The notes: generated from the letters alone by a model not told the origin. A DNA stretch of 64,000 nt from Clostridia bacterium (GCA_017541375.1 JAFXZE010000008.1:6207-70206), one strand, 5' to 3'; shown: positions 7,866 through 58,843, numbered from the stretch's first letter. Program-made: numbers and translations.

Positions 7866-7885
7866 ACCAACAAGGAGAAAACAAA

Positions 7886-8492: not shown

Positions 8493-8515
8493 TAAATAAG
8501 GAGTAGTTCTGAATT

Positions 8516-8899: not shown

Positions 8900-8923
8900 T
8901 TAAATAAACAAGGAGTTGTATTT

Positions 8924-9550: not shown

Positions 9551-9568
9551 TAAGGAGGGATTTTATTT

Positions 9569-10522: not shown

Positions 10523-10540
10523 ATTTAAGGAGTTAGTATA

Positions 10541-14645: not shown

Positions 14646-14701
14646 GTTATCCGCAGCCCATGTGATGAACTATGCGCAAAATTATAAAAAGGAGTGAATT
14701 T

Positions 14702-30352: not shown

Positions 30353-31723
30353 ATGGAATCAAGAGAAGAAGTAGCTACTAAACATAATAGGTGTTTGGGG
30401 GTAACTAGGTTAATTAAAATGATAGAATTACACAATTTGAATCATCCGGAAGATTGTGATGAGATTGGTAAATGGACCTATAATTTGCCAAAGCAAAATG
30501 ATATAATGGAGTATATCAATGAGGACGGAACTGTTGCGTATTATAGAATTGGAGCAGCTATTACCAATTTAAAACAAGGTAAGTTAAAAACTACTCCAGA
30601 GTTGTTTGAGAAAGTTGCTAAAATAATGGTTATTGAGGGAAAAAGTGTCTACAACAAAAAAACGACCTCTCAACCAAATAGTCAAATGGTTAGTAGTAGT
30701 GGCGTAAGAGGACCTCAATTAGCTAATTTAACAAAACTTGTTATAGTAATTAAGCAATGCAATGCGCTCCATCCCGAAAACTGTGATAAAAATGGGAGAT
30801 GGATTCGAAATTTTCCAGTAACTCATGAGCAAGTATATTTAAAGAATCGAGATGGTAGAATAGTTAAATATAATTTAGGTAAAAAAATGTATGATGTAAG
30901 TCGTTCTTCTTTGATTGAGCAACCCGGTGAAGAGATTAAAGAGCTTGTTTATTGGGAAGTTTATCAGCAAATGAAACTTGGTCCAAAAACAAAAAGGACT
31001 AAAAAGCAAATGCAGACACCTCCACTAGTTTTAGAAGTTGACGATGAAATATTTAAATTATTTGATTCACGCAACAATACTGAAAAAGAGTCGTTATGTG
31101 CTGAAAACAAATCGGTTTCAAAACTAGTTGTTAAAAAAGGTATCGGCATTAGTGCGCCTGAAGTATCAAAGCTACTTGCTGTGATTAAGTTACGTAATAT
31201 TCTCCATCCTGAAGATTGTGATGAAAATGGAAAGTGGATTCGAAATTTCCCTGTAGTTCAAGAACAGATATGGTTAAAGAATCGAGATGGTGAAGTAGTG
31301 AAGTATAATTTAGGCAAAAAAATGTATATGACAGGTTTTTCGTCGATTGTTTATTTAGAGAATGAAGAAGTTAATAAACTTGTTAGTTGGAAAGATTATC
31401 AAAAAGGTAAACTTGGCCCAAAAGCAAAAAGGACTAAAAAACAAATGCAGACACCTCCACAAGTTTTAGCTGTTGACGATAAAACATTTAAATTATTTAC
31501 AGCATCTGATGAGACTAATAATAATTCCTTATATAATGAGGCTAAAAATGTTTCAAAAGGGGTTTCTGCTGTAATGTTAATGTTGCAAACTTTAAATGAT
31601 GATGAGATTGACAAGATTAGAAAATGTTTGTGTCCAACTTGTGAAAAAAGTTGTCTTGTAATTCCTCGCGATGCATTGAAAGCGGACAAGAATAGTAATA
31701 AAACTATCAATAGAAGCGAATAG
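30353..31723 (+). CDS. Hypothetical protein built of three tandem ~145-aa repeats plus a Cys-rich C-terminus
   Basis: Repeat core HPE(D/N)CD(E/K)(N/I)GKW(I/T)(R/Y)N(F/L)P...LKNRDG..VKYNLGKKMY...GPK.KRTKKQMQTPP.VL.VDD..FKLF occurs 3 times. Copies 2 and 3 are also near-identical at the DNA level in places. Confidence 0.7.
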   Translation: MESREEVATKHNRCLGVTRLIKMIELHNLNHPEDCDEIGKWTYNLPKQNDIMEYINEDGTVAYYRIGAAITNLKQGKLKTTPELFEKVAKIMVIEGKSVYNKKTTSQPNSQMVSSSGVRGPQLANLTKLVIVIKQCNALHPENCDKNGRWIRNFPVTHEQVYLKNRDGRIVKYNLGKKMYDVSRSSLIEQPGEEIKELVYWEVYQQMKLGPKTKRTKKQMQTPPLVLEVDDEIFKLFDSRNNTEKESLCAENKSVSKLVVKKGIGISAPEVSKLLAVIKLRNILHPEDCDENGKWIRNFPVVQEQIWLKNRDGEVVKYNLGKKMYMTGFSSIVYLENEEVNKLVSWKDYQKGKLGPKAKRTKKQMQTPPQVLAVDDKTFKLFTASDETNNNSLYNEAKNVSKGVSAVMLMLQTLNDDEIDKIRKCLCPTCEKSCLVIPRDALKADKNSNKTINRSE

Positions 31724-45500: not shown

Positions 45501-46097
45501 AAAATTATTGCAAAGGAAAACTTAAATAATTTGTTTGTGCGAATCATACCCAAAATAGAGCAAATTCAATCTATCAAGACGGAGCAATTAGATACTAGTG
45601 AAGTAACAAGCATGGCAAGCATGTTCTATGGATGTAGTGGGCTTACATATCTAGATATTTCTAATCTAAATGTAGCAAAAGTTACTTCTATGAGTAAATT
45701 ATTTGCTTATTGTGGTAACTTGACTAATATAAAGTTTGGCAACAATTTTGGTATTAAAGCAACCAACATGAGTTATATGTTCTATAGATGTTCTAGTCTG
45801 CAGAACTTGGATTTGAGTAATTTTAGTACTGATAAAGTGACTAATATGAGTTATTTGTTTGCTTATTGTAGCTCACTTTCTAGGGTTTATTTGTCAAGTT
45901 CATCTGGGTGGACTACGACAAGAGTATCAAACAGTAGTGACATGTTTAAGGGGTGTAGTGCCTTAGTTGGGTATTATAAAGATGAAGAAAATTATGAATA
46001 TACTACAACATATAGCTCTAGTCATGTAAATAAAGATTATGCAAAGATACGTACACAAACTGAAGAAGGGTACTTTACAAGTTTGTTATTTAAGTGA
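33528..46097 (+). CDS. Giant (4189 aa) putative surface lipoprotein: lipobox, Big_2-like Ig domains, four blocks of GLUG-type repeats, C-terminal DUF285/BspA-type 26-residue repeats
   Basis: Uninterrupted 12.57-kb ORF. N-terminal LTIVIGMVTWFSGC (lipobox-like). Big_2-like ..TIKVIAKGAGETTLTIKT.. Dozens of xIGG(V/L/I)(V/A)G(Y/F/L) motifs at about nt 36980-38080, 41140-42020, 42595-43350 and 44015-45220. C-terminal TSMASMFYGCSGLTYLDISNLNVAKVTSMSKLFAYCGNLT... at about nt 45590-45975. Confidence 0.85.
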   Translation: MKYKFCVYLFLTIVIGMVTWFSGCGDQYSKLKIVVSTSELTFDLDNDDASEYEATFTATVDGASKDMVSGLILELSDQTVASASVISAENNKYTIKVIAKGAGETTLTIKTKESAKVCYEGFKIIVSKTAESLSSVTQKFSIKRGDELKLSLDEMLRVYPERIYPAIATFSILPTPSEVRADEELSVLERETIAALWDEQYGDSRLLGLSVKDNVLIASPECDVGVLQILAEVNGLYSTFPVLVYEKIESIQIYEVERDEFNNWVALAEDPTLNVHLATNASVAKKYAVVLDNQLNTTQFRVDEIFDETNKLTIAQLEELEIRGKTYTCFSVGGFNGGETVLRINVDLLYVNDNEQAEVFTTIQKDFPVKIDTAVSGIDLKCSDGVFDEINQVYNIQSAYAANLLGEKFTVELSPKAATDPSFSLGVASDMQGLVSVYVSTDDFVEKPSGKAETVKYDWQASSAIRLRGNSVIYIKYEGNENAAKNFDITIFAGFANECEATFSFKVVDAVKSLSVSSDDIKLVLGNDISQADGGMLLTVSAATTQVDTVLKISSSVDVVNIKESTEYGRTPSNGVLTINYEITAKAEGRTVIEISSLSGYSCRIVCNCYLAVDKSIAKLYVQDQTKNNIINVDSATLIGNELNLSMRKGKTIDIGYQMFENYYDESFKEHSYYFENISVSKEIESDVYEETFGYISVDSSEIITKHSFKLTPNQAAENQKFKIELTIGFVKKSGNTWSEDSVTLKILLDVISPIKDMSWARVIDSEPATFECIGQYNTATLYPKNEIYRDDESYHAEFYFAYDSLIDTDIGVEYSIDLDSNELAYAIDLENVLSNSQSLLNCTKLTLTFLKWPEDNTQQALDLKITIVTMKFREIKQLSCYVSLKHPLKVNELKLAGAKKHAVIFGEDDSEIYQERDMELNSSNMTTAGNETTYSFAINKLAGAERFDEIELLINVSPLNALNTQYGMYVKNSINGQFNPPIKDYFKFENNRIIYQKIDDKDFTGLVTIYIYPLDHEVDGVEVNDQIIRNGTDLENPTPWPFIKIELSICNGSQGNPYQIYDANDFLDIYSLSNSRVPNRLHRYVLKNNIDLSKLYMEKSELTQNRLAQIGSFFEFQDILESESKNGFSQRYAVSGIRLNKVVSDEDNKNYVGLFSILSGSITNVNFNVDMDFATESTINVDYLGLLAGKVKNKLGDYENYTDYKNISGVKVQGSLLDIKIGGVNTDLIYIGGVAGLVDNNVEIERLKFSGIIDLNLAANGRVGGMFGKSNSSIDNISNNTEFSQQSIELNVYASPNTLTDVAIGGLVGEFAGAMISNVGVAGKVYAPTLDRVGGVVGFNDGGNLVNIKTTANVVGHSNVGGVVGYNSNSGVLTAVYAENYVSDTMFEYALARGYSNIGGIIGYSEGGEISYSYVQTFAYRMFKKLSISTQADYVGDVWGTVNVGGLVGFAQDITILSCFANINIQLNWIGDDPKNLGGLIGCCEGGKIQHAYANCRTFKGGNSSNVGQLIGKLSGYVQTEGFVNVLGSEIKDVYGYVFEENINVLVGRDLSWVGEIILTYTADDDEITIPHSFDMVDYYFVSEEAIENIVGITNRNHEELQNINLRYRLPVEHDEGDVEKWLEGVDDENDYLPRLTKEDGSQLNPPPVESLTITPKIIENIPEDEDVTTAGVSVFDNGGPIGLIIDLAYRDGEDNGILLGQIAEIKIEKLGASTEVDITSSNPSVVSLILDENEHNYNFESNRILPKAIGASTITVVSRATPSIKAMLYINVICSSGFGVKKNAEDIVGISIINDGSENISSYNYNVRINESQVLQGYYLNNGSYEQNNNVEYGYIVDDDETILSATQNYTINVDETKIVGVKAYWVLDFGGEKFISEFSSDIIFFTFNPYYPIQNFDVSCTDATPSSGESTRFVARVEAEYVGDINISYSVTGDHVEYIDKVQVLVVDSSTPSKYKELRVEVYLNDEYKAISSPLEYKFTFKATTQYEAESSEKDIDISFLPTNVNKVNLSFYTKGLEMLEKGEEMPSLSISTTEMGVLMIEVVQDYADFDYCVIYPLVSDGDVSIQQLVKKYDENLLPQIHNLETTYIDGGVFIGKYSELIGVNFAPFSGVMYARVLIGGKFVEGDTCPIQVKLFKNGNIEVASAQIVLVTDFVSHATLTLDQSTQSSYIDNTVGLGTQARLVLNGEFRNCVLNRLDILDNAGSSILATGLENALDKCYISFKNLNNLGSAGREVVNRELWLYVGPGISESVTYITVVLNYTQQSVADKLPYSLIVKLKLYLVAYQVISATVTNLDNGALVVQTQTPADLIAMLNCLEPDYEVYKNYVATPVAQNDFNEAVEVIKAKLKTAESQLNICYNGILIWEYKPFNGNYTKINLPTQGNKINYGDFYIQMRNGDSNEYLNYVIEGINTVSDLSFKLRFKFGYSEQVLVRIKDGDTESGLVNNQAKEIDFEFKVNIIGGTVINTHPTPISSASEFRSIVNGGSYILSRDIDLGSDWEPLDLVTQNGNSLTLDGNGFIIKVSGFKVDDNKNNIGVFSTIGSNVVLTNLIIDVDINVIDLQQHSSINFGFLAGSNQGIIYNCDVLTTSLGEVTVINGAKEEAMAASTNDEFNNQNQTAEQLLVETNPTKYSVYIVVSKNTISNMGGFVGVNDGYITNCRVGRLTENSTKLKGTDKQVTQGINIFGYGNLGGFVGVNNRTISNSYYKNGDIINYARSSATTGGFVARNSGSGLIFGCFVEGRRADGSRQPRCEYGGVRAVVGTVGGFVHNNSGKIENSYSNIRLIGASIYVGGFVYNNFTTSRIANCYTACEVDESNVSTGVFIGRDRTGRIMQENGAEITNSYYYTDQLVASNPQKEYVTPVDLKGWSDRTGKSFTGFVFGQNGVNCVWQFDNLHSSFGPQLSFADTIYYSHRDITNNYAYSVGEGLGTRYNPILITSFNEENSYSSWASVFENNAIIGADNSRKVPNGVYISLLRDITFVGREEYTHSFKTDFSGVLYGNGYTLSGLSYNSSENVDNFGLFKTIDSGQVHSFNISVGNYISAADNFGVLAGTIKGNSFIDNVKIYEGILNGRQNIGGLAAIIEGNSFVQYVVVQNISINASEVPNVGEYYVGGVAGKIDLDESTANSIDNSPRIYSLIAQGDINLTGYVVGGVVGYIGSNTETDNIALYVEQFANSKLKSNGDYVGGIVGRLEGTLSSAYLGASIISQKQLDENGTYVGYLGLFTDNTSSAGGLVGILNGGTLQYSYSRAGVEANTAANKYKGSIIGEAISGYINEIYTISTLDVIGNIISCVEEKVVLISNSAILDIDSPDYVFKDFNAKKWVLENGKFPTLINNYVFNVVIPEDPGEIDEKTYLDNVIAAILSADSHTTISLERDITITVSDGQYIDPDSSEVVSGKVWASIEDGVIKLSKYQYTPLSNLKDSSQKVLSGGLEGRVEDNGTIRNAKITFVGLDDSYNSFFGELNNFSILNVDFEFQFVSNTNISTNSFGLLASKASACTFENMSVEFSNLSSIEQENHSIFNVGMIVPEASNSVFCNVNIVGQTDLIIFDDTYVNIGGLVGKNTNEGYSLTFSIIDVSNLRLSVTNAGGSGTSSNLQVSLGGIIGYSSEMVLIEECNAISNLTCTLGNYRNTSEVYIGGMIGYTGVENSYIKEYFTQASVPNIIVSIDSTNPTLYVGGLAGWFAGEVLENRVASEIIITSTLSNPTDMVVGGISGYISNTYRRSVIPVQNNSYSGSIHIVGNGAISCGGIFGQYDMKFNADNSNTECTMLYNTTFSGSISITDGGNNAVSTYVANTYVGGILGQSNTIISSQGIKFDLFKVTNAIIEDSANIAINYSTASNDITVYVGGLAGKTDSMLYYNTSKASINVVRNSADDEKTFIGGLVGDMQNSSHQDNEVIYSVNVSNVSTLNIKVMFAKLIDSADVLGNVTSIEFIQYNYSYTLDPKNKLSINELGLNNYFVTDNLSVYLYENKTKLLFVGEGKIIAKENLNNLFVRIIPKIEQIQSIKTEQLDTSEVTSMASMFYGCSGLTYLDISNLNVAKVTSMSKLFAYCGNLTNIKFGNNFGIKATNMSYMFYRCSSLQNLDLSNFSTDKVTNMSYLFAYCSSLSRVYLSSSSGWTTTRVSNSSDMFKGCSALVGYYKDEENYEYTTTYSSSHVNKDYAKIRTQTEEGYFTSLLFK

Positions 46098-49836: not shown

Positions 49837-49937
49837 TGCTCCTCCTTGAGTGTAGATTATTCCAAATGTAGAATTTATGTGAAAGTAGGGGAGTTTTCTT
49901 GACAAAGCATAAAAAAAACTATATAATCAAACTACTT

Positions 49938-50024
49938 GGAGAGGTGTCAGAGTGGTCGAATGTGCCGGCCTCGAAATTCGGTATGCCAAAAGCATCGAGG
50001 GTTCGAATCCCTCCCTCTCCGCCA
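49938..50024 (+). tRNA. tRNA-Ser (anticodon CGA), class II with long variable arm, encoded CCA
   Basis: Hand fold: acceptor GGAGAGG/CCTCTCC, T-arm GAGGG-TTCGAAT-CCCTC, variable arm ATGC-CAAAA-GCAT, anticodon loop CTCGAAA. One mismatch each in the D stem and anticodon stem. Confidence 0.8.
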
Positions 50025-50059
50025 GTAGAAACCAATTTGAACCGCAGGGTTCTTTTTTT
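50019..50059 (+). repeat. Left copy of a perfect 41-bp direct repeat (last 6 nt of tRNA-Ser plus its terminator)
   Basis: CCGCCAGTAGAAACCAATTTGAACCGCAGGGTTCTTTTTTT, identical to 59217-59257. Confidence 0.95.
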
Positions 50060-50138: not shown

Positions 50139-50167
50139 TTGACAAAAAAATAATTATATGTTATCCT
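50139..50167 (+). promoter_or_regulatory. Candidate promoter of the peptide/radical-SAM operon
   Basis: TTGACA-17 nt-TATCCT (consensus -35, weak -10). Confidence 0.45.
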
Positions 50168-50191
50168 TCTACTTGAAGGAGGATTTGCGCT

Positions 50192-50251
50192 ATGGCGAAA
50201 AGAATTACTTTAAAGAAAATGACGATTTACACAAGTTGCATGTCAACCTAA
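50192..50251 (+). CDS. 19-aa candidate RiPP precursor peptide MAKRITLKKMTIYTSCMST, absent from the ORF track
   Basis: GAAGGAGG RBS 9 nt upstream of the ATG. Basic N-terminal half and a Thr/Ser/Cys/Tyr-rich C-terminal half. Directly upstream of two radical-SAM genes. Confidence 0.6.
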   Translation: MAKRITLKKMTIYTSCMST

Positions 50252-50263
50252 TTTAAGCCACAG

Positions 50264-50297
50264 CTAAATTCATCATTTGATGAGTTTAGTTTTTTTT
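50264..50297 (+). terminator. Strong intrinsic terminator/attenuator between the peptide gene and the maturase genes
   Basis: 11-bp stem CTAAATTCATC/GATGAGTTTAG (one G-U pair), 4-nt loop, then 8 T. The RBS of the next gene starts right after the T-run. Confidence 0.8.
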
Positions 50298-50307
50298 AGG
50301 AGATGTT

Positions 50308-51213
50308 ATGGTTTTATTTTTTATTATTCACACAAAATGTGATTTATGCTGTAAAGATTGCTTTTATTCAAAAGGATATGAAAAAAGGGATTCTAGCGAA
50401 TTAAAGCTAGAAGATATAGAATTATTTGTTAAAAAAGTTTACGACTTAAGTTTTAAAACAATTATTCTGACTGGAGGAGATCCTCTTTATTCAAAGCGTA
50501 AATATGTTACCTATGCATTAATCGAATGTTTAAAAAAATACAAGTTAAGAGTTATAATTAATACTAGTGGCGCAAAATTGAATTCTATCGATATACAAAC
50601 TTTAATCAACTTAAATGTTGATAGAATAGATTTTTCGATTAATTCACTTGATGAAAATATTCATAATTCTGAACGAGGAAATTATCAAGACACTGTTTTT
50701 GCGATGAAAAGTCTTTTGAAAAATGGGTATGATAAAATCACTACTACTACAGTTATAACAGAAGAAAATGCGTATAAAGCACTGGAAACACTTCGATGGT
50801 TAAAATCTTTAGGTATAAAAGACATAAGATATCAACCTTTATTTAAACAAACAGCCCAAAATTATCAAATAATAAGAGATGCAATGTTGGAATGTAATAA
50901 AGAATTTGGTAATTCGCATTCAGAGTATTATTTATTACAGTGCGATAGAGCATATAATAACAAAATTCCTCAAGAGAATTCAGTATGTATGATGGGGAAA
51001 AATTTATTTGTAAGTGATGCATTAGGGAATATTTATCCTTGTTTTCATCGATTCGATGTAAATTTTGGAAATATCTTTACAGATGATACTTCATTTTTAA
51101 AGGACAAATTAATACATAATAGTTTTTATTCAGAAAGGCATGATTGTTTTGGTAAACATTGTGTTTCATTGTTCGATAACGGTGATTTTTGGAAAAAGGA
51201 AAAAGTTTTATGA
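50308..51213 (+). CDS. Radical SAM enzyme with C-terminal twitch/partial-SPASM-like Cys cluster
   Basis: CDLCCKDC (CX3CX2C) at residues 11-18, GGDPL, C-terminal CMMGKNLFVSDALGNIYPC...CFGKHC. Confidence 0.85.
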   Translation: MVLFFIIHTKCDLCCKDCFYSKGYEKRDSSELKLEDIELFVKKVYDLSFKTIILTGGDPLYSKRKYVTYALIECLKKYKLRVIINTSGAKLNSIDIQTLINLNVDRIDFSINSLDENIHNSERGNYQDTVFAMKSLLKNGYDKITTTTVITEENAYKALETLRWLKSLGIKDIRYQPLFKQTAQNYQIIRDAMLECNKEFGNSHSEYYLLQCDRAYNNKIPQENSVCMMGKNLFVSDALGNIYPCFHRFDVNFGNIFTDDTSFLKDKLIHNSFYSERHDCFGKHCVSLFDNGDFWKKEKVL

Positions 51214-52487
51214 AAAAGTACGTATACCCCTACAAGATATTTACAAATGAAAAAGTAATGTATCATTTTAATGTGGATAAGTTGTATATAACAGAAGTTA
51301 ATAATAATCATTTAGACTTATTGAATAAACTTGCTCAATTTGATTACGAAGAAGTGCAAGCTAACATTTTAGATGAGGAGCAAAAACAGTGTCTGAACGA
51401 TTTGATTGAATTTGAAATGATAACTGATGAGCAACCTAATATAAAAGAGCCAACTGTAGTTTGTAAACCTACTTCCTATCGTATAGTTTTAACGGAACAA
51501 TGTAACTTAGCCTGTGTTGAGTGTTTCGCAACAAAAAATATTAATTGTTTGAAAACTATGGATAGCGAAACACTGTTTGAGGTGCTTGAATATTCGTTTA
51601 AGAATAATAACAATAAATCTACACAGTATTGTTTTTTTGGTGGGGAACCTTTAATAAAGTTTGATTTAATAAAAGAAGCTGTTGCTAAAATTGAAGAAGC
51701 AGAAAAGAATCATTTAGTAAAGAATCCAGTTTTATTGATTACAACAAATGGAACGATATTAAATGATGAAATAATTGATTTTTTTATTGATCATAATGTA
51801 AGAGTAGGCGTGTCTATTGATGGTCCTAAAGAAATACACGACAAATTGCGACCATATAAGGATTTACGTGGGACTTTTGATGATGTAAAAGAAAACTATA
51901 TGAAAATGTATAATAAAGGAGTTAATCTACATGTTTTAATTACTCCTAATCCTGATTTTTTGGGTAATCTAAAAGATATTGTAAAGTATGTGCTTGAAAA
52001 TTTTCCAATGAAAGAATTGACAATTAATACCCCCTTTAAATACGATACTTTGCAATGGTCCGTTGATGGAGAAAAATATGCTCATATATTATTTGATATT
52101 TATAAATTAACCCAAGAATTTGGCGTTATCCTCGATTCTGCATTGTCGGTAGTGTTGGGGAGTATATCAAATGGCATTAGAAGACAAACTCCGTGTTCTA
52201 TTTTAGGAGATGAATTTATGACTTTGGTTACTCCTCATGGGGAAATGTCAAGATGTGCACAAAAATATGATTCCCAAATTTCTTTGGGAAACATCAAAAA
52301 CGTGAGTGTATCGGATAATTGTAAGAATTGTTATGCATACGGTTTTTGTGGTGGAGTATGCCCTGCATATAAGGTTTTGTCTGGTATGTCTACTGATTCA
52401 AACAAGTGTAAATTTATGCATGCTATATTACCTAATTTAATAAATTATTTAAAAATGTTTGAGGAGACATCTGATGATCTTCAGTAA
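51210..52487 (+). CDS. Radical SAM/SPASM peptide maturase with ~95-aa N-terminal (RRE-position) extension
   Basis: CNLACVEC (CX3CX2C), GGEPL. Complete SPASM signature CSILGDEFMTLVTPHGEMSRC...CKNCYAYGFCGGVC (CX2CX5CX3C). ATGA start/stop overlap with the upstream gene; an alternative start exists at 51189. Confidence 0.85.
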   Translation: MKKYVYPYKIFTNEKVMYHFNVDKLYITEVNNNHLDLLNKLAQFDYEEVQANILDEEQKQCLNDLIEFEMITDEQPNIKEPTVVCKPTSYRIVLTEQCNLACVECFATKNINCLKTMDSETLFEVLEYSFKNNNNKSTQYCFFGGEPLIKFDLIKEAVAKIEEAEKNHLVKNPVLLITTNGTILNDEIIDFFIDHNVRVGVSIDGPKEIHDKLRPYKDLRGTFDDVKENYMKMYNKGVNLHVLITPNPDFLGNLKDIVKYVLENFPMKELTINTPFKYDTLQWSVDGEKYAHILFDIYKLTQEFGVILDSALSVVLGSISNGIRRQTPCSILGDEFMTLVTPHGEMSRCAQKYDSQISLGNIKNVSVSDNCKNCYAYGFCGGVCPAYKVLSGMSTDSNKCKFMHAILPNLINYLKMFEETSDDLQ

Positions 52488-53637
52488 AGATATGTTTTTT
52501 ACAACCAAGTTTATTGATAGTGATCCCATATATGTAAAATTAGAAAAAGCAGGGTATATTAAACAAATAAGCTCTGGTATATATGCTTACTTAGAGCTTT
52601 TTAATAAATTATTAAGTAATATCTGTAATGAGATAGGTAACATATTTAAAGAATACAACATTAGTGAAGTTAAAATGCCTCTGTTACAGGATGCTAATTT
52701 ATGGAAAAACTCTGGGCGATTTGACATTTATGGTAAAGGTTTGTTTGTTACGGGGGAAAATGCTGAATATGTTTTGAGTGCAACAAGCGAAGAGGCGATT
52801 ATTAAATTGATAGATCTATTAGGGATTGAAGAGAAGCAATTACCATTTTGTGTATATCAGATTTCAGAAAGGTTAAGGAATGAATTACGTACTGCTTATG
52901 GTTTATTTCGAACAAAAACTTTCACACTAGCAGATTGTTATGCGATTGTCAATAATACAAATGATTTGGCACATTATACCCATATATTTAAAGAAATTTT
53001 TCACAAAATAGGTGTAAAATTTAATTTGGCACTGCATGAGGCTATTCACTTGGGACACAACCAGACCATTTCCATTTGGTGTAATTCAAAACTAAATCAA
53101 AGCCACCCCATAGTATGCAAAAATTGCAATAATTCATTTCGTAATAAATCTTTAATTACTAAATGTCCTATATGTAATTCTGCTAATGTAGCACGAGCCG
53201 TGGGGGCTGAAATTGGTGATATAGCAACAATACAGCAACTAATTAGTACAAAAAAAATTAATAATACTCATATTGTTACAATGGGAATTGGGTTAACTAG
53301 GCTTATTCAATTAATTGCAGAGCAAAAAGTATATAAAAATGGCTTTGATTGGGATTATTGGTATGCTCCATACAAAGCATATATTGTGGCTAGTAATGAA
53401 AGGAGAAACGAGGCACAAAAAATATATGACATACTAAATAGTAAGATAGATGCTCTTTTCGATAATAGAGCAAAAAGTATAGCCACGAAACTAATAGATG
53501 CTGATTTGATCGGTTGCCCATATAAAATCATATTAGGTAATAATACATGTATCGATACGGTCGAAATAAAAAGAAGTAATAAAATGTTAAAACTAAAAAG
53601 TGAGCAAGTTTTAAAATATATATTAGATAATAGATAG
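52474..53637 (+). CDS. Minimal bacterial-type ProRS-like class II aaRS paralogue: no INS editing domain, CxxC...CxxC insert, degenerate motifs
   Basis: AGYIKQISSGIYAYLELF, MPLLQDANLWKNSGRF and LRNELRTAYGLFRTKTFTLADCYA align with the motif 2 region ([25 protein letters not shown]). MGIGLTRLIQLIAEQ is motif 3. An HGTP-type anticodon-binding domain follows (YKAYIV...LFDNRAKS...DADLIGCPYKIILG). The 14-nt overlap with the upstream gene has a GAGGAG RBS. Confidence 0.75.
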   Translation: MIFSKDMFFTTKFIDSDPIYVKLEKAGYIKQISSGIYAYLELFNKLLSNICNEIGNIFKEYNISEVKMPLLQDANLWKNSGRFDIYGKGLFVTGENAEYVLSATSEEAIIKLIDLLGIEEKQLPFCVYQISERLRNELRTAYGLFRTKTFTLADCYAIVNNTNDLAHYTHIFKEIFHKIGVKFNLALHEAIHLGHNQTISIWCNSKLNQSHPIVCKNCNNSFRNKSLITKCPICNSANVARAVGAEIGDIATIQQLISTKKINNTHIVTMGIGLTRLIQLIAEQKVYKNGFDWDYWYAPYKAYIVASNERRNEAQKIYDILNSKIDALFDNRAKSIATKLIDADLIGCPYKIILGNNTCIDTVEIKRSNKMLKLKSEQVLKYILDNR

Positions 53638-53664
53638 TTGAAATAACTAGTTTAGGAGAATAAA

Positions 53665-55092
53665 ATGAATAAACAAAGAGAATTAGTAAAAAAAGATAAC
53701 ATGGCAGAGTGGTATCAAAATGTTATAGAAAAGGCTGATTTAGCCGAACATTCACCAGTAAAAGGCTGCATGACCATAAAACCTTATGGTTATGCTATTT
53801 GGGAATTAATAAGAAATGAATTAGATATTTTAATAAAAAAACATGGGGCAAAGAATATGAGTTTTCCTCTTTTTATTCCTTATTCATATTTGTCAAGAGA
53901 GAAGGATCATGTTGAAGGATTTAGTCCTGAAATTGCTGTGGTTACACACGCTGGTGGTAAAAAATTACAAGAACCTTTGGTCGTTCGACCAACGTCCGAG
54001 ACGATCATTCATGAAAGTATGAGGAGATGGATTTATTCATATAAAGATTTGCCCCTAAAGTTGAATCAGTGGTGTAATGTTGTGCGTTGGGAAAAGCATC
54101 CTCGTTTATTTTTAAGAACTTCCGAATTTCAATGGCAGGAAGGGCATACTGCACATGCAACGGAACAAGAAGCACGACAAGAAGTGGAAAGTATGGTTGA
54201 ACTTTACTACAATTTTATTAAAGATGTTTTAGCTATTCCTACAGTAAAGGGACAGAAATCAGAAAAGGAAAAATTTGCAGGAGCGGTTGATTCATATAGT
54301 GTAGAGGCACTTATGCCAGATAATAAAGCTGTTCAAATGGGAACAATTCATTACTTAGGTTTGAATTTTTCAAAAATAGCAGATGTGAAATTTGTAGATG
54401 AAAGTGGTGCTGAAAACTTTGTATATATGACAAGCTGGGGAGTTTCAACAAGGCTCATAGGGGCATTGATAATGACTCATGGTGATGATAAAGGATTAGT
54501 TCTTCCACCGAAAGTAGCACCAGTTCAAATTGTTATTGTACCTATTGGTAATACTTTAGAAACAGCGCAACGCTTATTTAATGAATTAAACAATAGTGGT
54601 TTTAGAGTGGAGTTAGATGATCGTCAAGATGTGCGACCAGGAGCTAAATATTTTGAAAATGAAATGAGAGGTATTCCTGTCAGAATAGAAATAGGTGAAA
54701 GGGAAATTGAGAATAATGAAATACAGTGTGTAAATAGAGTTACAGGAAAGAGGACGGTATTATCACTTGGTTCAGATTATATACAATCTATAAAAGATTT
54801 ATTACAAGAAATTCAATCTACACTTTTAAAAAATGCAACAGAAAGAATGAGAAATAGCGTGGTAGAAGCGAAAACAAAAGAAGAATTTTCCGATTTGATA
54901 GAAAACCAAAAGGGTTTTATAAAAGCTTGTTGGTGTGATGAAAAAGAATGTGAAGTAAGCATTAAAGATAAAACTGGAGCAAATAGCAGAAATTTACCGT
55001 TTGCCGAAAACGAAAAAGAATTGACTGATTGTACTTGTGTTTGGTGTGGTAAAAAGGCTAAGAAAATTGCATATTTTTGTAAAGCTTATTAA
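53665..55092 (+). CDS. proS: Prolyl-tRNA synthetase, archaeal/eukaryote-like type (full length, with C-terminal Zn-binding domain)
   Basis: EWYQNVIEKADLAEHSPVKGCMTIKPYGYAIWE, RPTSETII, FLRTSEFQWQEGHTAH, SWGVSTRLIGALIMTHGDDKGLVLPP. C-terminal CWCDEKEC...CVWCGKKAK...KAY ends in the conserved terminal Tyr. Confidence 0.9.
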   Translation: MNKQRELVKKDNMAEWYQNVIEKADLAEHSPVKGCMTIKPYGYAIWELIRNELDILIKKHGAKNMSFPLFIPYSYLSREKDHVEGFSPEIAVVTHAGGKKLQEPLVVRPTSETIIHESMRRWIYSYKDLPLKLNQWCNVVRWEKHPRLFLRTSEFQWQEGHTAHATEQEARQEVESMVELYYNFIKDVLAIPTVKGQKSEKEKFAGAVDSYSVEALMPDNKAVQMGTIHYLGLNFSKIADVKFVDESGAENFVYMTSWGVSTRLIGALIMTHGDDKGLVLPPKVAPVQIVIVPIGNTLETAQRLFNELNNSGFRVELDDRQDVRPGAKYFENEMRGIPVRIEIGEREIENNEIQCVNRVTGKRTVLSLGSDYIQSIKDLLQEIQSTLLKNATERMRNSVVEAKTKEEFSDLIENQKGFIKACWCDEKECEVSIKDKTGANSRNLPFAENEKELTDCTCVWCGKKAKKIAYFCKAY

Positions 55093-55110
55093 TAACTGGG
55101 GAAAATATTT

Positions 55111-56214
55111 ATGAAGCCATATAGTCTAAATAAAAATGATAAGATAGCAATAATTTCTCTATCGGGTGGAAGTTTAGGAGAAGCATACAATAAGCCAATA
55201 GTTGAATTGGGTATAAAGAGATTAAAAGATTTGGGTTTTGTCACTGTTTTTACACCCAATAGCCTAAAGGGTATAGATTTTTTACATAACAATCCAAAGG
55301 CACGAGCCGAAGATTTAAAGGCGGCTTTTAGGGATGATAGCATTAAAGCAATTCTATGTGCAATTGGTGGGGATGATACAATACTAACGATTCCATATCT
55401 ATTAAGTGATAGTGAATTTATTTTAAATGTAAAAAAGCATCCGAAAGTTTTTTTCGGATACTCGGATTCAACAATAAATCATTTAATGTTTTGTAAGTTA
55501 GGATTACAAACATACTATGGAATAAGTTTTATAACAGATTTTTGCGAATTAGCGCCCAATATGATTCCTTATACTTTAAATAGTTTTGTAAATTTTTGTA
55601 ATAATCCAAAAGCCTTTTCCATTACGCCAAGTAAGTATTGGTATAGGGAAAGAGATGATTATTCAATCAAGAATTTAGGATTTGAAAGAATTGCTGTTGA
55701 AGAGGAGCGAGGATACATCTTTTTTAATAGTATGAAAAAAGTAAAAGGTGAATTATTTGGTGGTTGCATAGAAATCTTATCTGCTTGTTTGGGAATAATA
55801 GACAAAGATTGGTTTTATCATAAAGAAATTGTAGATATTTTTTATAAGATTGCCGATAAATTTAAGCTTTTTCCGACAAAGGATTATTTGAAAGGCAAAA
55901 TTCTATTTCTAGAATCAAGTGAGGTGTTTATTAAACCTGAAAAATTGAAACAATTTCTATTGAAACTTGAAGAATTGGGAATACTAGCAGTTTTGAATGG
56001 TATTATCGTATCAAAACCTATGGAAGAAAAATATTTTGATGAGTATTTATCTGTTTATAAAGATGTATGCTCAAAATATAGTTTTCCTGTAATATATAAT
56101 TTTAATTTGGGGCATTCATGTCCGAGAAATATATTGCCATATGGTGTTAAATGTGAAATTGATCCTGTAAACAAGACGATTAGAATAGTCGAAAAAATGA
56201 CTTGTGACAATTGA
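55111..56214 (+). CDS. Peptidase S66 (LD-carboxypeptidase / MccF-like serine hydrolase), long 367-aa form
   Basis: IAIISLSGGS, nucleophile elbow GYSDST, C-terminal NLGHSCPRNILPYG (catalytic His region). The length fits the MccF-like rather than the short LdcA-like subgroup. Confidence 0.8.
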   Translation: MKPYSLNKNDKIAIISLSGGSLGEAYNKPIVELGIKRLKDLGFVTVFTPNSLKGIDFLHNNPKARAEDLKAAFRDDSIKAILCAIGGDDTILTIPYLLSDSEFILNVKKHPKVFFGYSDSTINHLMFCKLGLQTYYGISFITDFCELAPNMIPYTLNSFVNFCNNPKAFSITPSKYWYRERDDYSIKNLGFERIAVEEERGYIFFNSMKKVKGELFGGCIEILSACLGIIDKDWFYHKEIVDIFYKIADKFKLFPTKDYLKGKILFLESSEVFIKPEKLKQFLLKLEELGILAVLNGIIVSKPMEEKYFDEYLSVYKDVCSKYSFPVIYNFNLGHSCPRNILPYGVKCEIDPVNKTIRIVEKMTCDN

Positions 56215-56259
56215 GCATTTATCTATCTAGTTAAGCCTATCTTGCGCCGCCAATTTTTT

Positions 56260-56281
56260 AGGAGCTTCGGCTCTTTTTTTG
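56260..56281 (+). terminator. Intrinsic terminator ending the operon
   Basis: AGGAGC-TTCG-GCTCTTTTTTT (short stem, UUCG loop). Confidence 0.6.
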
Positions 56282-56470: not shown

Positions 56471-58843
56471 ATGAACAAAGAAAACGGTGTGCTAAGTGGA
56501 CCGATTACAAAAGAGGAAATAGAGTTACTCATTTCCAATCCAAAGAAGTTTTGGGAAGGAGTAACCAAGATTGATAAGAGGACTTTTAAGGGCTGTATCT
56601 CTCTAAAGGACATAACTATTCCCGATAGTATAACAAGTATTGGTGACGGAGCATTTGATGACTGTGACAGACTAGAAAGTATTACTATTCCTGAGAGTGT
56701 AACAAGTATTGGTAAGTCGGCCTTTTATGGATGTAAAAATCTCAATAGCATCAACATTCCCGATAGTATAACAAGTATTGGTGAAGATGCTTTTTCGGGT
56801 TGTGAAAGTCTAGAGAGAATTACTATTCCTGATAGTGTAACAAGTATCGGCGATGGTGCTTTTTTTGGTTGTGAAAGACTAGAAAGTATTACTATTCCTG
56901 AAAGTGTAACGAGCATTGATGATTATACTTTTCTGAACTGTAAACAACTCAATAGTATCATCATTCCTAATAGTGTAACCAATATTGGATACAAAGCGTT
57001 CGTTGGGTGTACGAGTTTAACTAGTGTAACAATCCCAAATAGTGTAACAAGTATTGGAGCAATGGCTTTCAGTAGCTGTAGTGGATTAACCAGTGTAACA
57101 ATACCCAATAGTGTGACAAGTATTGAATACCTGGCTTTCTGTAGGTGTACTAGCTTAACCAGTGTAACAATACCTAATAGTGTAAAAAGTCTTGGAAGTA
57201 GGGCATTCGAGATGTGTACTGATTTAACCCGTATTACTATGCTGATGGGAATTAGTTGTGGCTCTGATTCTGTTGAGTGGGATAAGTTTAAATTTATACA
57301 ATTTCATGAAGATGGAAAAAACTTAAGCCTACTAAGCTCTCCACCGAAAAATGCTACAAATTGCATCGCTGCATCTCCAGACACCATGTTTAAGTGTGTC
57401 ACAAGTAGAAATTATGGAAAAAATACCATTAAACAGCAAAAGTTAAATCAAGAATTGGAAAAGCAGGGGCGCAAACCACTAAAATTGCCTGATTTTATGC
57501 TAGATACTTTTCCGCACGAGCAATTTAACAATATCTTTTACAACAATAATATCACTAGATGGCGAAATTTAGTGAAAACTCTTGAATTTGATAAATTACC
57601 AGATACCAAAAAAAATAATAGCCTAACCGATTTGTTGAAAATATATTATGCCATAGGTGGTTTTTCCGAGGTTCAAAGCGATAGTATAAGTGCATATAAC
57701 TATATTCTAGAGCACGTTGTGTCGAAAGAAGCTACATCTAGCGCAAACGGAGATTTTATTCACAAAGCGTTTTCAAAAGTGCAACTTGAAGGGCCGTATA
57801 ATAAAGATTTTGCTAAATTTTTTATGATGTATTATGATGACCCAGACTTCAAGCGGTTTAATCTCAAAGATGAAGATGATATGTTTATCGATTCGAAGAG
57901 CTTTTGTTGGGAGGCAGCCCACAACTCGTTTGGAAGAATTCAAAAAGATTTCCCAGGTAAGGTTGTAAGTGGCACAACTGGCAGGGAGGATTTATTGGAT
58001 CCACCATTTGTGATGAAGCATAGTATAATAGTTCAATATGAGAATGTTGAGCCAGGGAATGAATCGTTAGCTGAGTTAGTGGGGCGGTATGGCTATACGC
58101 AAAGTCAGTTTGAGTATATTCAGACCATCTACAACTATGCCAAAGCGCACAAAGATGAATATGTTATCATGGCTGACAAAGCAAATGAAGATGATCCAGT
58201 GAAATTTAGAGCGTTAGCAAAAGATGATCCTCTTGGTTTTGTATTGGGTGATATCACTAATTGTTGCCAACACATTGGGGGAATGGCACAAAGCTGTGTG
58301 GACGATGGATACAAAAATCCTAATGCAGGTTTTATAGTATTTGAAGAAAGTATACTAGATGATAATGGATTAGACACAGGAGAAAAGCGAGTGTTAGCAC
58401 AAGCCTACGTGTGGTATGACCCAGATACCAAGACAGTTTGCTATGACAATATTGAAATACCGGATAAGATTTTGGCAAAATTGCGCAAGGGAGATAAGCA
58501 TGGCAGCCTGATATCGGCAAAATCTTTGATTAGTGCAGTGGAAAAATCTGCTGAGTCAATAATACTTGCGATGAACAGAAAAGGAATTGAGGTAGAGCGA
58601 GTAACCACAGGAGAAGGGTATAATGACTTGAAGAAAGAATTGCAATCAAACTTTCCTCGAGAAAGTCCACCAAAATCGAAGGGCCCTAAAGGTGTATATA
58701 CAGATGCAAAAACAGCCCAATATATACTTTCTACATATGACAAAGTGACCAAGAAATATGGCGGTATAGTAAAGGATGCTCTAAAAGAGGCGACAAAAGG
58801 CCTAAGTGAAATAAAAACAGCCACTCAAGGCCGACAAGCATAA
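56471..58843 (+). CDS. BspA-type (LRR_5) leucine-rich-repeat protein without signal peptide, ~500-aa uncharacterised C-terminal domain
   Basis: About 8 repeats of ITIP(D/E/N)SVTSIG..AF.GC..L.S. The N-terminus MNKENGVLSGPITKEEIELL is hydrophilic. No motif recognised in the C-terminal region (..GDITNCCQHIGGMAQSCVDDGYKNPNAGFIVFEE..). Confidence 0.8.
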   Translation: MNKENGVLSGPITKEEIELLISNPKKFWEGVTKIDKRTFKGCISLKDITIPDSITSIGDGAFDDCDRLESITIPESVTSIGKSAFYGCKNLNSINIPDSITSIGEDAFSGCESLERITIPDSVTSIGDGAFFGCERLESITIPESVTSIDDYTFLNCKQLNSIIIPNSVTNIGYKAFVGCTSLTSVTIPNSVTSIGAMAFSSCSGLTSVTIPNSVTSIEYLAFCRCTSLTSVTIPNSVKSLGSRAFEMCTDLTRITMLMGISCGSDSVEWDKFKFIQFHEDGKNLSLLSSPPKNATNCIAASPDTMFKCVTSRNYGKNTIKQQKLNQELEKQGRKPLKLPDFMLDTFPHEQFNNIFYNNNITRWRNLVKTLEFDKLPDTKKNNSLTDLLKIYYAIGGFSEVQSDSISAYNYILEHVVSKEATSSANGDFIHKAFSKVQLEGPYNKDFAKFFMMYYDDPDFKRFNLKDEDDMFIDSKSFCWEAAHNSFGRIQKDFPGKVVSGTTGREDLLDPPFVMKHSIIVQYENVEPGNESLAELVGRYGYTQSQFEYIQTIYNYAKAHKDEYVIMADKANEDDPVKFRALAKDDPLGFVLGDITNCCQHIGGMAQSCVDDGYKNPNAGFIVFEESILDDNGLDTGEKRVLAQAYVWYDPDTKTVCYDNIEIPDKILAKLRKGDKHGSLISAKSLISAVEKSAESIILAMNRKGIEVERVTTGEGYNDLKKELQSNFPRESPPKSKGPKGVYTDAKTAQYILSTYDKVTKKYGGIVKDALKEATKGLSEIKTATQGRQA

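Follow-up and report, generated by a model that had tools for sequence, protein, structure and literature searches.

Organisation of the locus

The window analysed here is a stretch of 64,000 nucleotides from a Clostridia bacterium, and the locus lies on its plus strand. It opens with a promoter-like site at 50139–50167 (TTGACA-17-TATCCT with a TG extension), followed by a 19-codon ORF at 50192–50251 whose ATG has the RBS AGGAGG 8 nt upstream, and by a hairpin with a 13-bp stem and a T8 run at 50262–50299, in the spacer that separates this peptide gene from the enzyme genes. These encode two radical-SAM proteins (rSAM1, 50308–51213; rSAM2, 51210–52487), a paralogue of prolyl-tRNA synthetase (ProRS; 52474–53637), a complete ProRS (proS; 53665–55092) and an S66 serine hydrolase (55111–56214). 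The genes are closely coupled: an ATGA overlap joins rSAM1 to rSAM2, the paralogue overlaps the end of rSAM2 by 14 nt, and gaps of 27 and 18 nt precede the ProRS and S66 genes, respectively. A sequence scan places a terminator-like hairpin with a T-run at the end of the unit (56260–56281). Promoter, RBS, ORF, terminators and gene coupling had been listed in the initial annotation, and all sequence features named there were present on re-check.

The short peptide gene and its hairpin

The product of the ORF, taken as a precursor or scaffold peptide, is MAKRITLKKMTIYTSCMST. In 7/7 homologous loci (L007, L013, L014, L015/L016, L017 and L018 supplied the homologues) there is a short basic peptide with the C-terminus [T/S]-S-C-x-S-[G/T]-stop, and in 7/7 it is followed by a hairpin and then by the rSAM1, rSAM2 and ProRS-like genes. 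Of the homologous peptides (n = 8), 7/8 have a 17-residue C-terminal module, [KR][KR][IV]x[LIF]x5[RHY][TS]SCxS[GT]-stop, conserved without gaps; the conserved motif stands at the extreme C-terminus, again in 7/8. All are basic, with a pI of 9.9–12 and 0–1 acidic residues. The C-terminal core is invariant across phyla and conserved at the amino acid level over GC contents of 29–47 %, while the remainder of the peptide varies. Among three close lineages YTSCMST-stop shows synonymous differences only, the synonymous/non-synonymous changes in the last 8 codons being 4/0, 3/0 and 1/0.

Since promoter-like matches are not enriched across the region (57 observed against 52 expected), the promoter scan by itself proves nothing. 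The same arrangement recurs in L007 and L013, with TTGACA-17-TATTAT or TATATT at equal distance 5' of the peptide gene. The TTGACA-17-TATxxT promoter, RBS, ORF and hairpin are position-conserved in both loci and the last 8 codons vary only synonymously, which shows that these features are real. Judged by this conservation, the 19-codon ORF is a genuine gene.

A stable hairpin occupies the same position in all seven ProRS-type loci, its sequence diverging, and the whole spacer between peptide gene and rSAM1 has a minimum free energy of −14 to −34 kcal/mol in these loci. We propose to regard the hairpin at 50262–50299 as a leaky terminator or a stabiliser.

Conservation of the cassette and an AlaRS-type variant

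The peptide gene, hairpin, rSAM1, rSAM2 and paralogue occur together in eight peptide-bearing lineages, to a paralogue identity of ≤ 40 %, and gene order is constant in L007, L013, L014, L015, L017, L018 and JGI 3300072015. The initial annotation had named a missing ORF or scattered genes in homologous loci as evidence against a functional unit; the set is intact in all eight lineages. The set thus recurs in distant bacteria, and most of the homologous loci come from Patescibacteria (CPR, ultra-small and genome-reduced); the window and L014 share 47 % identity in rSAM1, 45 % in rSAM2, 40 % in the paralogue and 60 % in ProRS.

In a related cassette (L023/L024) an AlaRS-like protein replaces the ProRS-like one, together with both an S66 and an S51 hydrolase. 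With an AlaRS-like protein in the same place, the aaRS-type component counts as an integral part of the cassette. The motif-2 arginine has apparently been lost from the AlaRS-like protein, so that adenylate formation may not be a property common to both paralogue types. Both retain a tRNA-binding module: the ProRS-like protein has kept its anticodon-binding domain, the AlaRS-like protein the acceptor-stem motif PSNxGxGY.

No exporter, leader peptidase or immunity pump and no MccB/ThiF homologue was found in the loci examined. The cassette matches no NCBIfam model at cut-off, and the libraries and literature searched contained neither a curated family nor a paper that describes it. The proposal of an undescribed RiPP-like unit is borne out to this extent, and the locus is apparently a conserved, so far unnamed RiPP-like cassette.

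The radical-SAM enzymes

Both radical-SAM proteins match PF04055 (Pfam, NCBIfam) and contain CX3CX2C (CDLCCKDC and CNLACVEC) and GG(D/E)PL (GGDPL and GGEPL), as had been noted together with the SPASM signature of the second, CKNCYAYGFCGGVC. rSAM1 (301 aa; PF04055 at 4e-17) is below every NCBIfam cut-off. Its C-terminus carries a twitch or partial-SPASM cysteine motif, GNIYPCFHRFD...CFGKHC, and its sole PDB sequence match is the twitch region of BtrN. Orthologues are present in every locus; that of the AlaRS-type variant is 25 % identical and has the same C-terminal motif.

rSAM2 (425 aa), a putative peptide maturase, has its best NCBIfam matches in PapB (4e-37), the nif11 maturase, whose model aligns from residue 13, and CcpM, none of which reaches its cut-off. 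In the AF2 model (pLDDT 90.8), the N-terminus forms a beta3-alpha3 domain. Foldseek returned CteB (5WGG/5WHY) as the best match over the full length including this domain, followed by TigE and anSME. According to the model, the architecture of rSAM2 is RRE, radical-SAM core and SPASM, as in the thioether-forming CteB. The N-terminal extension, initially noted as lying where RREs usually sit, is RRE-like by predicted fold and CteB match; no Pfam PqqD/RRE match was obtained for it. About 45 clusters at ≥ 37 % identity make up the rSAM2 family.

A remodelled ProRS paralogue

The paralogue (387 aa; PF00587 and PF03129) is derived from a class II aaRS. It combines a catalytic core with an anticodon-binding domain and has a Cys4 zinc ribbon where the INS editing domain would otherwise lie. 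Its best structural matches are the bacterial ProRS 2J3M, 5ZNJ and 2I4L; model confidence is medium (pLDDT 74), with a poorly modelled motif-2 loop. It fails every ProRS cut-off and belongs to a separate clade with 24–28 % identity to bona fide ProRS, which is rare (about 13 clusters at 50 % identity among 1.84 billion representatives) and has kept pace in its divergence with the radical-SAM genes rather than with ProRS.

Seventeen paralogues were compared with 17 bona fide ProRS. R135, E137, R146, F150 and R276 are invariant, and T104, E106, E107 and the Cys4 ribbon vary little or not at all. Replacements are seen at D136N, E149S/T, K153A, E200S, E209Q, D210C/S, F251A/V and GCY268-270, and there is a new D249; all 17 paralogues, or nearly all, show these changes. 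The alignment indicates a consistently remodelled amino-acid pocket, with a different set of residues conserved throughout the clade, and the ATP-binding motifs and the anticodon-binding domain kept.

The paralogue descends from an editing-less, zinc-ribbon ProRS of bacterial type, and the INS-less 'minimal' bacterial ProRS is its probable ancestor. These enzymes (R. palustris type, PDB 2I4L; zinc-ribbon P0005, P0009, P0079-P0089) have the same domain plan, in which catalytic core and anticodon-binding domain are combined with a short insert or zinc ribbon. Unlike the paralogue, they sit in housekeeping contexts (nusA, rseP) and keep PTHEE, REF, MKDAYSF, EVGH/NxF and GCYGIG, all of which are replaced in the paralogues.

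The complete ProRS

The 475-aa protein is an archaeal-type ProRS (PF00587, PF03129, PF09180) scoring 558 bits on TIGR00408, whose cut-off is 437, and it clusters with ordinary ProRS genes. It had been put forward as an extra, self-resistant copy. This reading is not supported: the NCBIfam score is that of a normal ProRS, and relatives at 75 % (L019) and 72 % (L021) identity carry the gene in housekeeping contexts without the cassette. It is an ordinary housekeeping enzyme, co-transcribed with the cassette. ProRS also adjoins the cassette in L007, L009, L013, L014 and JGI 3300072015; this frequent fusion to proS is left unaccounted for by the model favoured below and counts against it.

S66 and S51 hydrolases

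The 367-aa S66 protein (PF02016 and PF17676) has its best PDB match in 4E94, an 'MccC family/MccF-like' protein (E = 5e-88), and matches LdcA 6UUK at no more than 35 bits; its similarity thus marks it as MccF-like rather than LdcA-like. The protein shares 29 % identity with its S66 counterpart in the AlaRS-type L024 cassette. Its place in the unit is less firm: neither S66 nor S51 is found beside the cassettes of L007 and L013, the two closest relatives (for L013, within the ~370 nt left before the contig end), and in one strain of the window species a stop stands in place of the codon for the catalytic Ser. S66 is a probable accessory component in the window species.

In the ProRS-type CPR loci S51 takes the place of S66, and an S51 gene adjoins the cassette in L010, L014, L015, L017, JGI 3300072015 and L023. 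The cassette S51 proteins have Ser, His and Glu intact and match cyanophycinase-like enzymes best. One or both of these hydrolases recur in distant loci. The hydrolases shown to cleave the aminoacyl-nucleotides of processed microcin C belong to two families, S66 (MccF) and S51 (MccG) (PMC9239234).

Discussion

Several types of known system resemble the cassette. In CteB/SCIFF, PapB ranthipeptides and sactipeptides, a short Cys-containing precursor likewise stands beside a maturase with RRE, radical-SAM and SPASM domains, with a hairpin after the precursor gene, and rSAM2 aligns with CteB from end to end and has its highest score with PapB, which can join Cys to a C-terminal residue (PMC12373016). 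Several points set the cassette apart from these systems: rSAM2 is below the cut-off of every curated maturase family; the lone Cys of the peptide lies in an invariant motif of 6 residues at the C-terminus; the twitch-type rSAM1 is obligatory as a second radical-SAM enzyme; the set includes S51/S66 hydrolases and an enzyme derived from an aaRS; and exporter and leader peptidase are missing. Pearlins (3-thiaglutamate, sinefungin decorations) have in common with the cassette the logic of a scaffold peptide with aminoacyl-tRNA-linked C-terminal chemistry, tailoring and release by a peptidase (bioRxiv 10.64898/2026.05.21.726688; PMC9016710). However, PEARLs are LanB-like enzymes rather than aaRS folds and none occurs in the cassette, whose putative ligase descends from a class II synthetase. 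Finally, an aaRS core is reused in the non-canonical class II paralogues PoxA/EpmA, AsnA and amino acid:[carrier protein] ligases to acylate targets other than the cognate tRNA, and EpmA partners the radical-SAM enzyme EpmB. Those paralogues have lost the tRNA-binding domains, whereas the cassette paralogue keeps its anticodon-binding domain; EpmB is an aminomutase, whereas the radical-SAM partners here are SPASM/twitch peptide maturases; and the likely acceptor here is a peptide of 19–33 residues rather than EF-P or a carrier protein.

Of the three functions proposed in the initial annotation, a ligase role for the paralogue fits best. We give a probability of roughly 50 % to the reading of the locus as a new RiPP-like cassette whose aaRS-derived ligase acts on a peptide modified by radical-SAM enzymes, product and chemistry being inferred. 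rSAM2 would bind the basic [KR][KR][IV]x[LIF] segment of the peptide and form a thioether between the peptide's single Cys and a residue close by, perhaps that at the C-terminus, and rSAM1 may add a second radical modification. The paralogue would activate an amino acid, not necessarily proline, as the adenylate and transfer it to the modified peptide, directly or by way of a tRNA, which it would still bind. An exo-hydrolase with a Ser-His-Glu triad (S51 in most loci, MccF-like S66 in the window, both in one variant) may then cut an aminoacyl or C-terminal bond, either setting free a small product or breaking down a toxic aminoacyl-nucleotide-like intermediate. The hairpin would set a high ratio of peptide to enzyme and still let transcription reach proS.

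A ProRS inhibitor with immunity, also proposed initially, gains some support from the recurrence in cassettes of S51 and S66, the two microcin C immunity hydrolase families (PMC9239234). In an MccB-independent Trojan-horse form, the paralogue would make an aminoacyl-adenylate, and the radical-SAM enzymes would fix either this adenylate or an adenosyl group to the Cys motif; the basic peptide would serve as uptake carrier, S51/S66 as MccG-/MccF-like self-immunity and ProRS as protection at the target. As with microcin C, there is a short ribosomal peptide whose invariant C-terminal end and variable basic N-terminal part resemble the logic of MccA, an enzyme whose ancestral chemistry is adenylate formation and whose ATP residues are kept, an MccF-like rather than LdcA-like S66 in the window, and an aaRS link in the form of tight linkage to proS. 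We nevertheless consider it unlikely: MccB/ThiF, the MccC pump or any other exporter, and a precursor ending in Asn are absent from the loci examined, microcin C involves no radical-SAM enzymes, the cassette S51 has a cyanophycinase-like best match and Ser-His-Glu instead of the Ser-His-Asp of MccG clade V, the S66 gene bears a nonsense mutation in one strain, and ProRS is an ordinary orthologue. Moreover, the aaRS type switches between ProRS-like and AlaRS-like with a similar peptide core, which argues against a matched target.

Alternatively, the cassette might yield a metabolite or cofactor that is derived from the peptide and acts inside the cell, by a logic like that of PQQ, mycofactocin or pearlins: the C-terminal residues of a scaffold peptide would be modified by the radical-SAM enzymes, an exopeptidase would cut the product off, and the aaRS-derived enzyme would reload the scaffold or pass the product on using tRNA/ATP. 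An invariant core in an otherwise variable peptide is also seen in PqqA and MftA. S51 and S66 are exopeptidases and the motif is C-terminal, tRNA-binding modules persist in both paralogue types, exporters, leader peptidases and immunity pumps were not found, most hosts have reduced genomes, and co-transcription with an essential gene suggests constitutive expression. Such a role is doubtful in view of a distribution that is very sparse for a cofactor (about 13 paralogue clusters), of close relatives entirely without the cassette, and of the failure to find a LanB-like PEARL enzyme, PqqB/C, MftD/E/F or another cofactor-using partner. An ordinary proS operon, in which ORF and terminator would sense charged tRNA, the paralogue would be a second functional ProRS and the radical-SAM genes unrelated neighbours, resembles classical attenuation in its leader ORF and intrinsic terminator upstream of a housekeeping aaRS gene, but is highly improbable and already contradicted by the present data, as the window peptide has no Pro codons, its motif is conserved at the amino acid level with synonymous changes only, no T-box or other Rfam element was found at the locus, the ORF stays with the radical-SAM genes where proS is not adjacent (L017, L023), and the paralogue has lost ProRS-invariant residues.

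Our favoured reading remains a peptide modified by two radical-SAM enzymes and an aaRS-derived ligase; the probable product is a novel type of modified peptide or a small molecule derived from a peptide.

Layout of the cassette

The coordinates and motifs of the initial annotation were all recovered in the window, and its domain calls were confirmed with Pfam and NCBIfam profiles. All elements lie on the forward strand. A promoter-like site (TTGACA-17-TATCCT with a TG extension; 50139–50167) is followed by a 19-codon ORF, MAKRITLKKMTIYTSCMST (50192–50251), with an AGGAGG ribosome-binding site (RBS) 5' of it, and by a hairpin of 13 bp and T8 (50262–50299). Five genes come next, encoding the small twitch-type radical-SAM enzyme rSAM1 (50308–51213), the radical-SAM/SPASM maturase rSAM2 (51210–52487), a 387-aa paralogue derived from prolyl-tRNA synthetase (ProRS) (52474–53637), a separate 475-aa, archaeal-type ProRS (53665–55092) and an S66 hydrolase (55111–56214). 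Their junctions are, in order, an ATGA overlap, a 14-nt overlap, a 27-nt gap and an 18-nt gap, and a terminator-like hairpin (56260–56281) marks the end of the unit. Scanning for promoter-like sites yielded 57 where 52 were expected, which by itself is not above chance; promoter, RBS, ORF and hairpin are taken as real because they are conserved in relatives.

Rfam searches revealed neither a T-box nor another riboswitch, whether 5' of the operon or 5' of proS in relatives; the sole match was a tRNA-Ser(CGA) gene upstream of the operon (49938–50024). This gene lies directly behind a perfect match to TTGACA-17-TATAAT (window 49899–50024) and has its own terminator at 50039–50052, just 5' of the cassette promoter. 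No conserved tRNA gene was found beside the cassette in the other loci; in the distant locus L014, a tRNA-Gln gene lies 3' of the cassette on the other strand. Base composition (28–31 % GC in the cassette vs 32–36 % in the flanks) gave no clear signal of recent horizontal transfer.

Elsewhere in the window, a single ORF of 4189 aa with DUF285 repeats according to Pfam spans 33528–46097, and a 790-aa BspA-type leucine-rich-repeat protein is encoded right behind the cassette (56471–58843). A 240-aa HNH-endonuclease ORF (11243–11965) is located immediately 3' of the ribosomal-protein/rpoA/rplQ operon (638–11050). Three ORFs of 1027, 456 and 271 aa (26107–29190, minus strand; 30353–31723 and 14672–15487, plus strand) had no Pfam match at E ≤ 1e-5.

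Distribution and synteny

Relatives of the paralogue are rare, with only a handful in an index of 5.8 billion proteins. When 1.84 billion representatives were searched exhaustively with a profile, about 13 clusters (50 % identity) carried the paralogue signature, and below these the profile scores run into ordinary ProRS. For rSAM2, about 45 clusters were found at an identity of at least 37 %; those that are named belong to Candidatus Uhrbacteria and 'Patescibacteria group'. The order peptide, hairpin, rSAM1, rSAM2, paralogue was seen in every readable locus, apart from the variant L023/L024 treated separately. Compared with their counterparts in L014, rSAM1 and rSAM2 of the window are 47 % and 45 % identical, the paralogue is 40 % and ProRS 60 % identical; the genes have thus diverged together. 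Plasmids and phages contained only generic ProRS or radical-SAM matches (≤31 % identity).

At NCBI, homologues of the paralogue have only generic names, 'His/Gly/Thr/Pro-type tRNA ligase C-terminal domain-containing protein' or 'hypothetical'. None of the cassette proteins of the window, L014 and L024 reaches the cut-off of an NCBIfam model as a specialised cassette family, and no description of this gene combination was found in the literature searched in full text. Additional genes were noted at two loci. Behind the cassette and the S51 peptidase gene of the Patescibacteria locus L017 (11060–13144) lie genes for a third radical-SAM/SPASM protein, with best NCBIfam matches to NirJ2, AhbD and MftC-like families, and a class I methyltransferase; in JGI 3300072015, a methyltransferase and a NUDIX gene are found 3' of the cassette.

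The short peptide

Eight homologous peptides were found, each encoded directly 5' of radical-SAM genes. The same promoter spacing, RBS, 19-codon ORF and hairpin are present in two close lineages with 64–69 % identity in the paralogue, namely L007/L008 (gut metagenome; peptide MAKRICFKKIKLYTSCMST) and L013 (a MAG labelled 'uncultured Clostridia bacterium'; peptide MAKRINLKKLKIYTSCMST). When the three close lineages were compared, the last eight codons showed synonymous/non-synonymous differences of 4/0, 3/0 and 1/0, and the non-synonymous changes gathered in codons 6–12. The short ORF is thus a real gene, and its substitution pattern points to purifying selection.

At the equivalent place, four much more distant loci also contain a small ORF: MKKRARRIKIVAVKPHTSCLSG in L014, MKTAEVTPSPKKHKKARRIRLAAQKPRTSCQSG in L015/L016, MKSQKKAKKVNIATQKARTSCQSG in L017 and MQRKKHVKPRRIKLKPQKPRSSCQSG in L018. 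Gapless alignment from the C-terminus shows the pattern [KR][KR][IV]x[LIF]x5[RHY][TS]SCxS[GT]-stop in seven out of seven peptides, all strongly basic (pI 9.9–12). The C-terminal residue is T or G, with K in the L024 variant. A stable hairpin lies 3' of each of the seven peptide genes, and the hairpin sequences are unrelated.

Attenuation by a leader peptide was considered and rejected, as the window peptide lacks Pro codons and it is the amino-acid sequence that is under selection. In L013, a MITE-like element of ~220 bp (2738–2955) has inserted into the hairpin behind the peptide gene, duplicating 'ctaaattctttgaggaatt', and an inverted copy of it lies 3' of proS on the same contig (about 7850–7990).

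Radical-SAM proteins

rSAM2 carries the motif CNLACVEC and the SPASM cysteines CKNCYAYGFCGGVC; across 41 homologues, the CX3CX2C and SPASM cysteines are invariant or nearly so. Its best NCBIfam scores were with PapB, the nif11 maturase, CcpM, QhpD and anSME, and it belongs to none of the curated maturase families (PapB, ScfB, CcpM, AlbA and others), the best being PapB (128 bits; cut-off 340). The remaining curated maturase families were likewise below cut-off for the window, L014 and L024. CteB was the best PDB sequence match. The AF2 model calculated with the 41 homologues (pLDDT 90.8) consists of an N-terminal β3-α3 domain (three strands, three helices), then the radical-SAM barrel and finally the SPASM domain. 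In Foldseek, the chain aligned over its full length with RRE-containing CteB (TM 0.64–0.70), and TigE, anSME and ChlB ranked next. Despite the absence of a PqqD/RRE match to the N-terminus in Pfam, even at E = 10, the predicted architecture is that of a leader-binding, Cys-directed peptide maturase.

The only PDB sequence match of rSAM1 (301 aa) was to the twitch region of BtrN. Its C-terminal motif GNxYPCFHRxD...CxGxHCxSLF is retained even in the most distant variant.

The ProRS-derived paralogue

The paralogue missed all ProRS cut-offs (PRK09194, 202 bits/558; TIGR00409, 181/307; PRK12325, 175/550), and the HGTP anticodon-binding domain (PF03129) was detected at 5e-9. Its fold matches bacterial ProRS with TM 0.72–0.75. 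Sequence and model together give the plan of a bacterial-type ProRS in which a Cys4 zinc ribbon replaces the INS editing domain and which retains a complete anticodon-binding domain. In a separate clade of their own, the paralogues share 24–28 % identity with bona fide ProRS.

Residues were compared between 17 paralogues and 17 ProRS. The class II motif 2/3 residues for ATP/adenylate (R135, E137, R146, F150, R276) are invariant in the paralogues, and TxEE nearly so. Positions invariant in ProRS are exchanged for other conserved residues in all or nearly all of the 17 paralogues (D136N, E149S/T, K153A, E200S, E209Q, D210C/S, F251A/V and GCY268–270), and D249 is gained. The replaced core positions would belong to the amino-acid pocket. 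The Cys of GCYGIG (C443 in E. coli) is presumably located at the prolyl-adenylate site, and its replacement fits an altered amino-acid pocket. The paralogue is derived from ProRS but is probably not itself a ProRS, and we infer from the residue pattern that it is active, still forms adenylates and acts on a new substrate.

Ordinary minimal ProRS with the same zinc ribbon occur in housekeeping contexts, such as P0005 beside ispG and nusA and P0009 beside rseP, and are likely the ancestors of the paralogue. These two proteins, which are 27 % identical to the paralogue and have nusA and rseP contexts, were set aside as ordinary ProRS.

The full-length ProRS

The 475-aa ProRS had been read as a possible extra copy conferring resistance. 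This was not borne out. Its TIGR00408 score is normal and above the cut-off, and its 75 % and 72 % identical orthologues stand alone in housekeeping contexts: P0217 (75 %; L019, 8001–9431) lies 3' of ftsQ-ftsA-ftsZ and of a gene for a pseudouridine synthase and has an upstream region of 300 nt to itself, and P0220 (72 %; L021, 531–1961) is flanked by an AT-rich intergenic region and by dnaG-rpoD. Because the nearest ProRS relatives beyond the three close lineages thus occur without the cassette, a resistant extra copy is unsupported, and we conclude that the full-length ProRS is the housekeeping enzyme. No other proS was found within the 64-kb window. L019 and L021 are very AT-rich relatives, and the presence of orthologous ProRS without the cassette in them means that the cassette was either gained in the lineage of the window or lost in theirs.

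Even so, the linkage is striking: ProRS is the next gene after the paralogue in the window and in L007, L009 and L013, and the two genes overlap in L014 and JGI 3300072015. For at least eight further rSAM2 homologues, the contig size equals that of a top ProRS match. The linkage is not universal, as L010, L017 and L023 have no adjoining proS.

A neighbour-joining tree placed the window ProRS among CPR-type sequences, apart from Clostridia. That ProRS forms a co-transferred, cassette-specific clade was rejected, since cassette-linked and cassette-free genes are interleaved within this CPR-like group; the tree is hence not evidence for a dedicated copy.

S66 and S51 hydrolases

The S66 protein of the window is MccF-like by sequence (PDB 4E94, 5e-88, vs just 35 bits for LdcA). 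An S66 gene is absent beside the cassette of L007 and from the ~370 nt left before the contig end in L013. The CPR loci have, beside the cassette, an S51 peptidase in place of S66; it looks active, with Ser, His and Glu intact. Its triad is of the PepE/cyanophycinase type with Glu, not the Asp of clade V (MccG), and its best matches are cyanophycinase-like enzymes. Homology was considered as an explanation for the interchange of S51 and S66, but none was detectable (hhalign probability 0.5 %).

Variation was seen in this gene among contigs of the window species. In one metagenome variant, L004 (10638–11741, corresponding to window 55111–56214), a single C-to-A change turns the codon of the catalytic Ser (GYSDS) into a stop. 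The L005 contig matches the window up to nucleotide 798 of the S66 gene and diverges thereafter. All six contigs of the species have intact copies of the remaining four cassette genes.

A variant with an AlaRS-like protein

The most distant rSAM2 relative examined (34 % identity) belongs to a related cassette (L023, 7859–13765; L024, 1277–7183). Its order is peptide MNVQKRASVSTSGLIATKLCMQSGGCAEKPSSKKIKK, rSAM2 homologue, rSAM1 homologue, S66 (29 % identical to the window S66), a methyltransferase on the opposite strand, a 394-aa AlaRS-like protein and an S51 peptidase. The peptide has 37 aa, an internal Cys motif (KLCMQSGGC) and a basic C-terminal tail. The AlaRS-like protein stands in place of the ProRS-like paralogue. 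It follows from this layout that a class II synthetase paralogue is an integral, swappable component and that the S66 and S51 families both belong to cassettes of this type. The AlaRS-like protein retains DSGVGLER and the acceptor-stem motif PSNKGAGY, and it seems to have lost the motif-2 arginine; hence, tRNA binding may be a property shared by the ProRS-like and AlaRS-like paralogues.

Discussion

The best-supported reading, to which we assign a probability of about 0.5, is a RiPP-like cassette in which a synthetase-derived enzyme adds an amino acid to a radical-SAM-modified peptide. The data show the anatomy, the conservation, the folds and the residue pattern; every chemical step, as set out here, is inferred. 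rSAM2 would bind the basic leader-like segment and cross-link the single Cys; as a precedent, PapB can join a Cys to a C-terminal residue (PMC12373016). rSAM1 would perform a second radical step. The synthetase-derived enzyme would then attach the amino acid, straight from the adenylate or via a tRNA, and the S51 or S66 exo-hydrolase would release or detoxify the C-terminal or aminoacyl moiety. The hairpin would provide surplus peptide message while transcription runs on into proS.

A peptide carrying an aminoacyl-nucleotide or a similar warhead directed at aminoacyl-tRNA synthetases, i.e. a microcin-C-like inhibitor made by a route unrelated to MccB, is conceivable and rather unlikely. The paralogue would supply the adenylate, the radical-SAM enzymes would weld it to the Cys motif, and MccF-/MccG-type hydrolases and the co-transcribed ProRS would protect the producer. 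Hydrolysis of processed microcin C has been demonstrated for two families, S66 (MccF) and S51 (MccG) (PMC9239234). Unlike in microcin C, no cassette gene encodes an MccB/ThiF-type adenylyltransferase domain and no precursor ends in Asn. If true, Trojan-horse synthetase inhibitors would have arisen a second time and independently, here mainly in CPR bacteria. An intracellular metabolite or cofactor derived from the peptide, following the logic of pearlins, PQQ or mycofactocin, is also improbable; in difference to PEARL/pearlin systems, a LanB or PEARL domain is absent from all cassette loci. That the paralogue loads a tRNA with a peptide-derived amino acid is much less likely than a Trojan-horse inhibitor and has a very small probability. 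A plain attenuated proS operon is contradicted by the data and highly improbable.

With sacti- and ranthipeptide-type RiPPs the cassette shares a conserved precursor gene beside the maturase, the CX3CX2C and SPASM cysteines and the CteB/anSME fold, whereas the window rSAM2 falls outside every curated maturase family. EpmA/EpmB (PoxA/YjeK) combines a LysRS-derived ligase lacking the anticodon domain with a radical-SAM enzyme of the lysine 2,3-aminomutase type; the cassette, in contrast, has a ProRS-derived paralogue with an anticodon domain and SPASM/twitch radical-SAM enzymes. Judged by its genes, the cassette appears to be RiPP-like and to lie outside the curated maturase families, ProRS proper, microcin C, PEARL and EpmA/EpmB.

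Among RiPP-like pathways, it would be the first found to have a class II aminoacyl-tRNA-synthetase paralogue as an integral enzyme; this component is exchangeable, resembling ProRS in most loci and AlaRS in one variant. It would bring together work on radical-SAM peptide chemistry, on non-canonical uses of synthetase folds and on the MccF/MccG hydrolases, few of which have a known natural substrate. The cassette is small, with about 4–6 kb and a peptide of 19–33 residues, and its hosts are mostly Patescibacteria, whose reduced genomes are thought to be poor in specialised metabolism. In view of these hosts and of the frequent fusion of the cassette to the essential proS, its product may matter for their translation or lifestyle.
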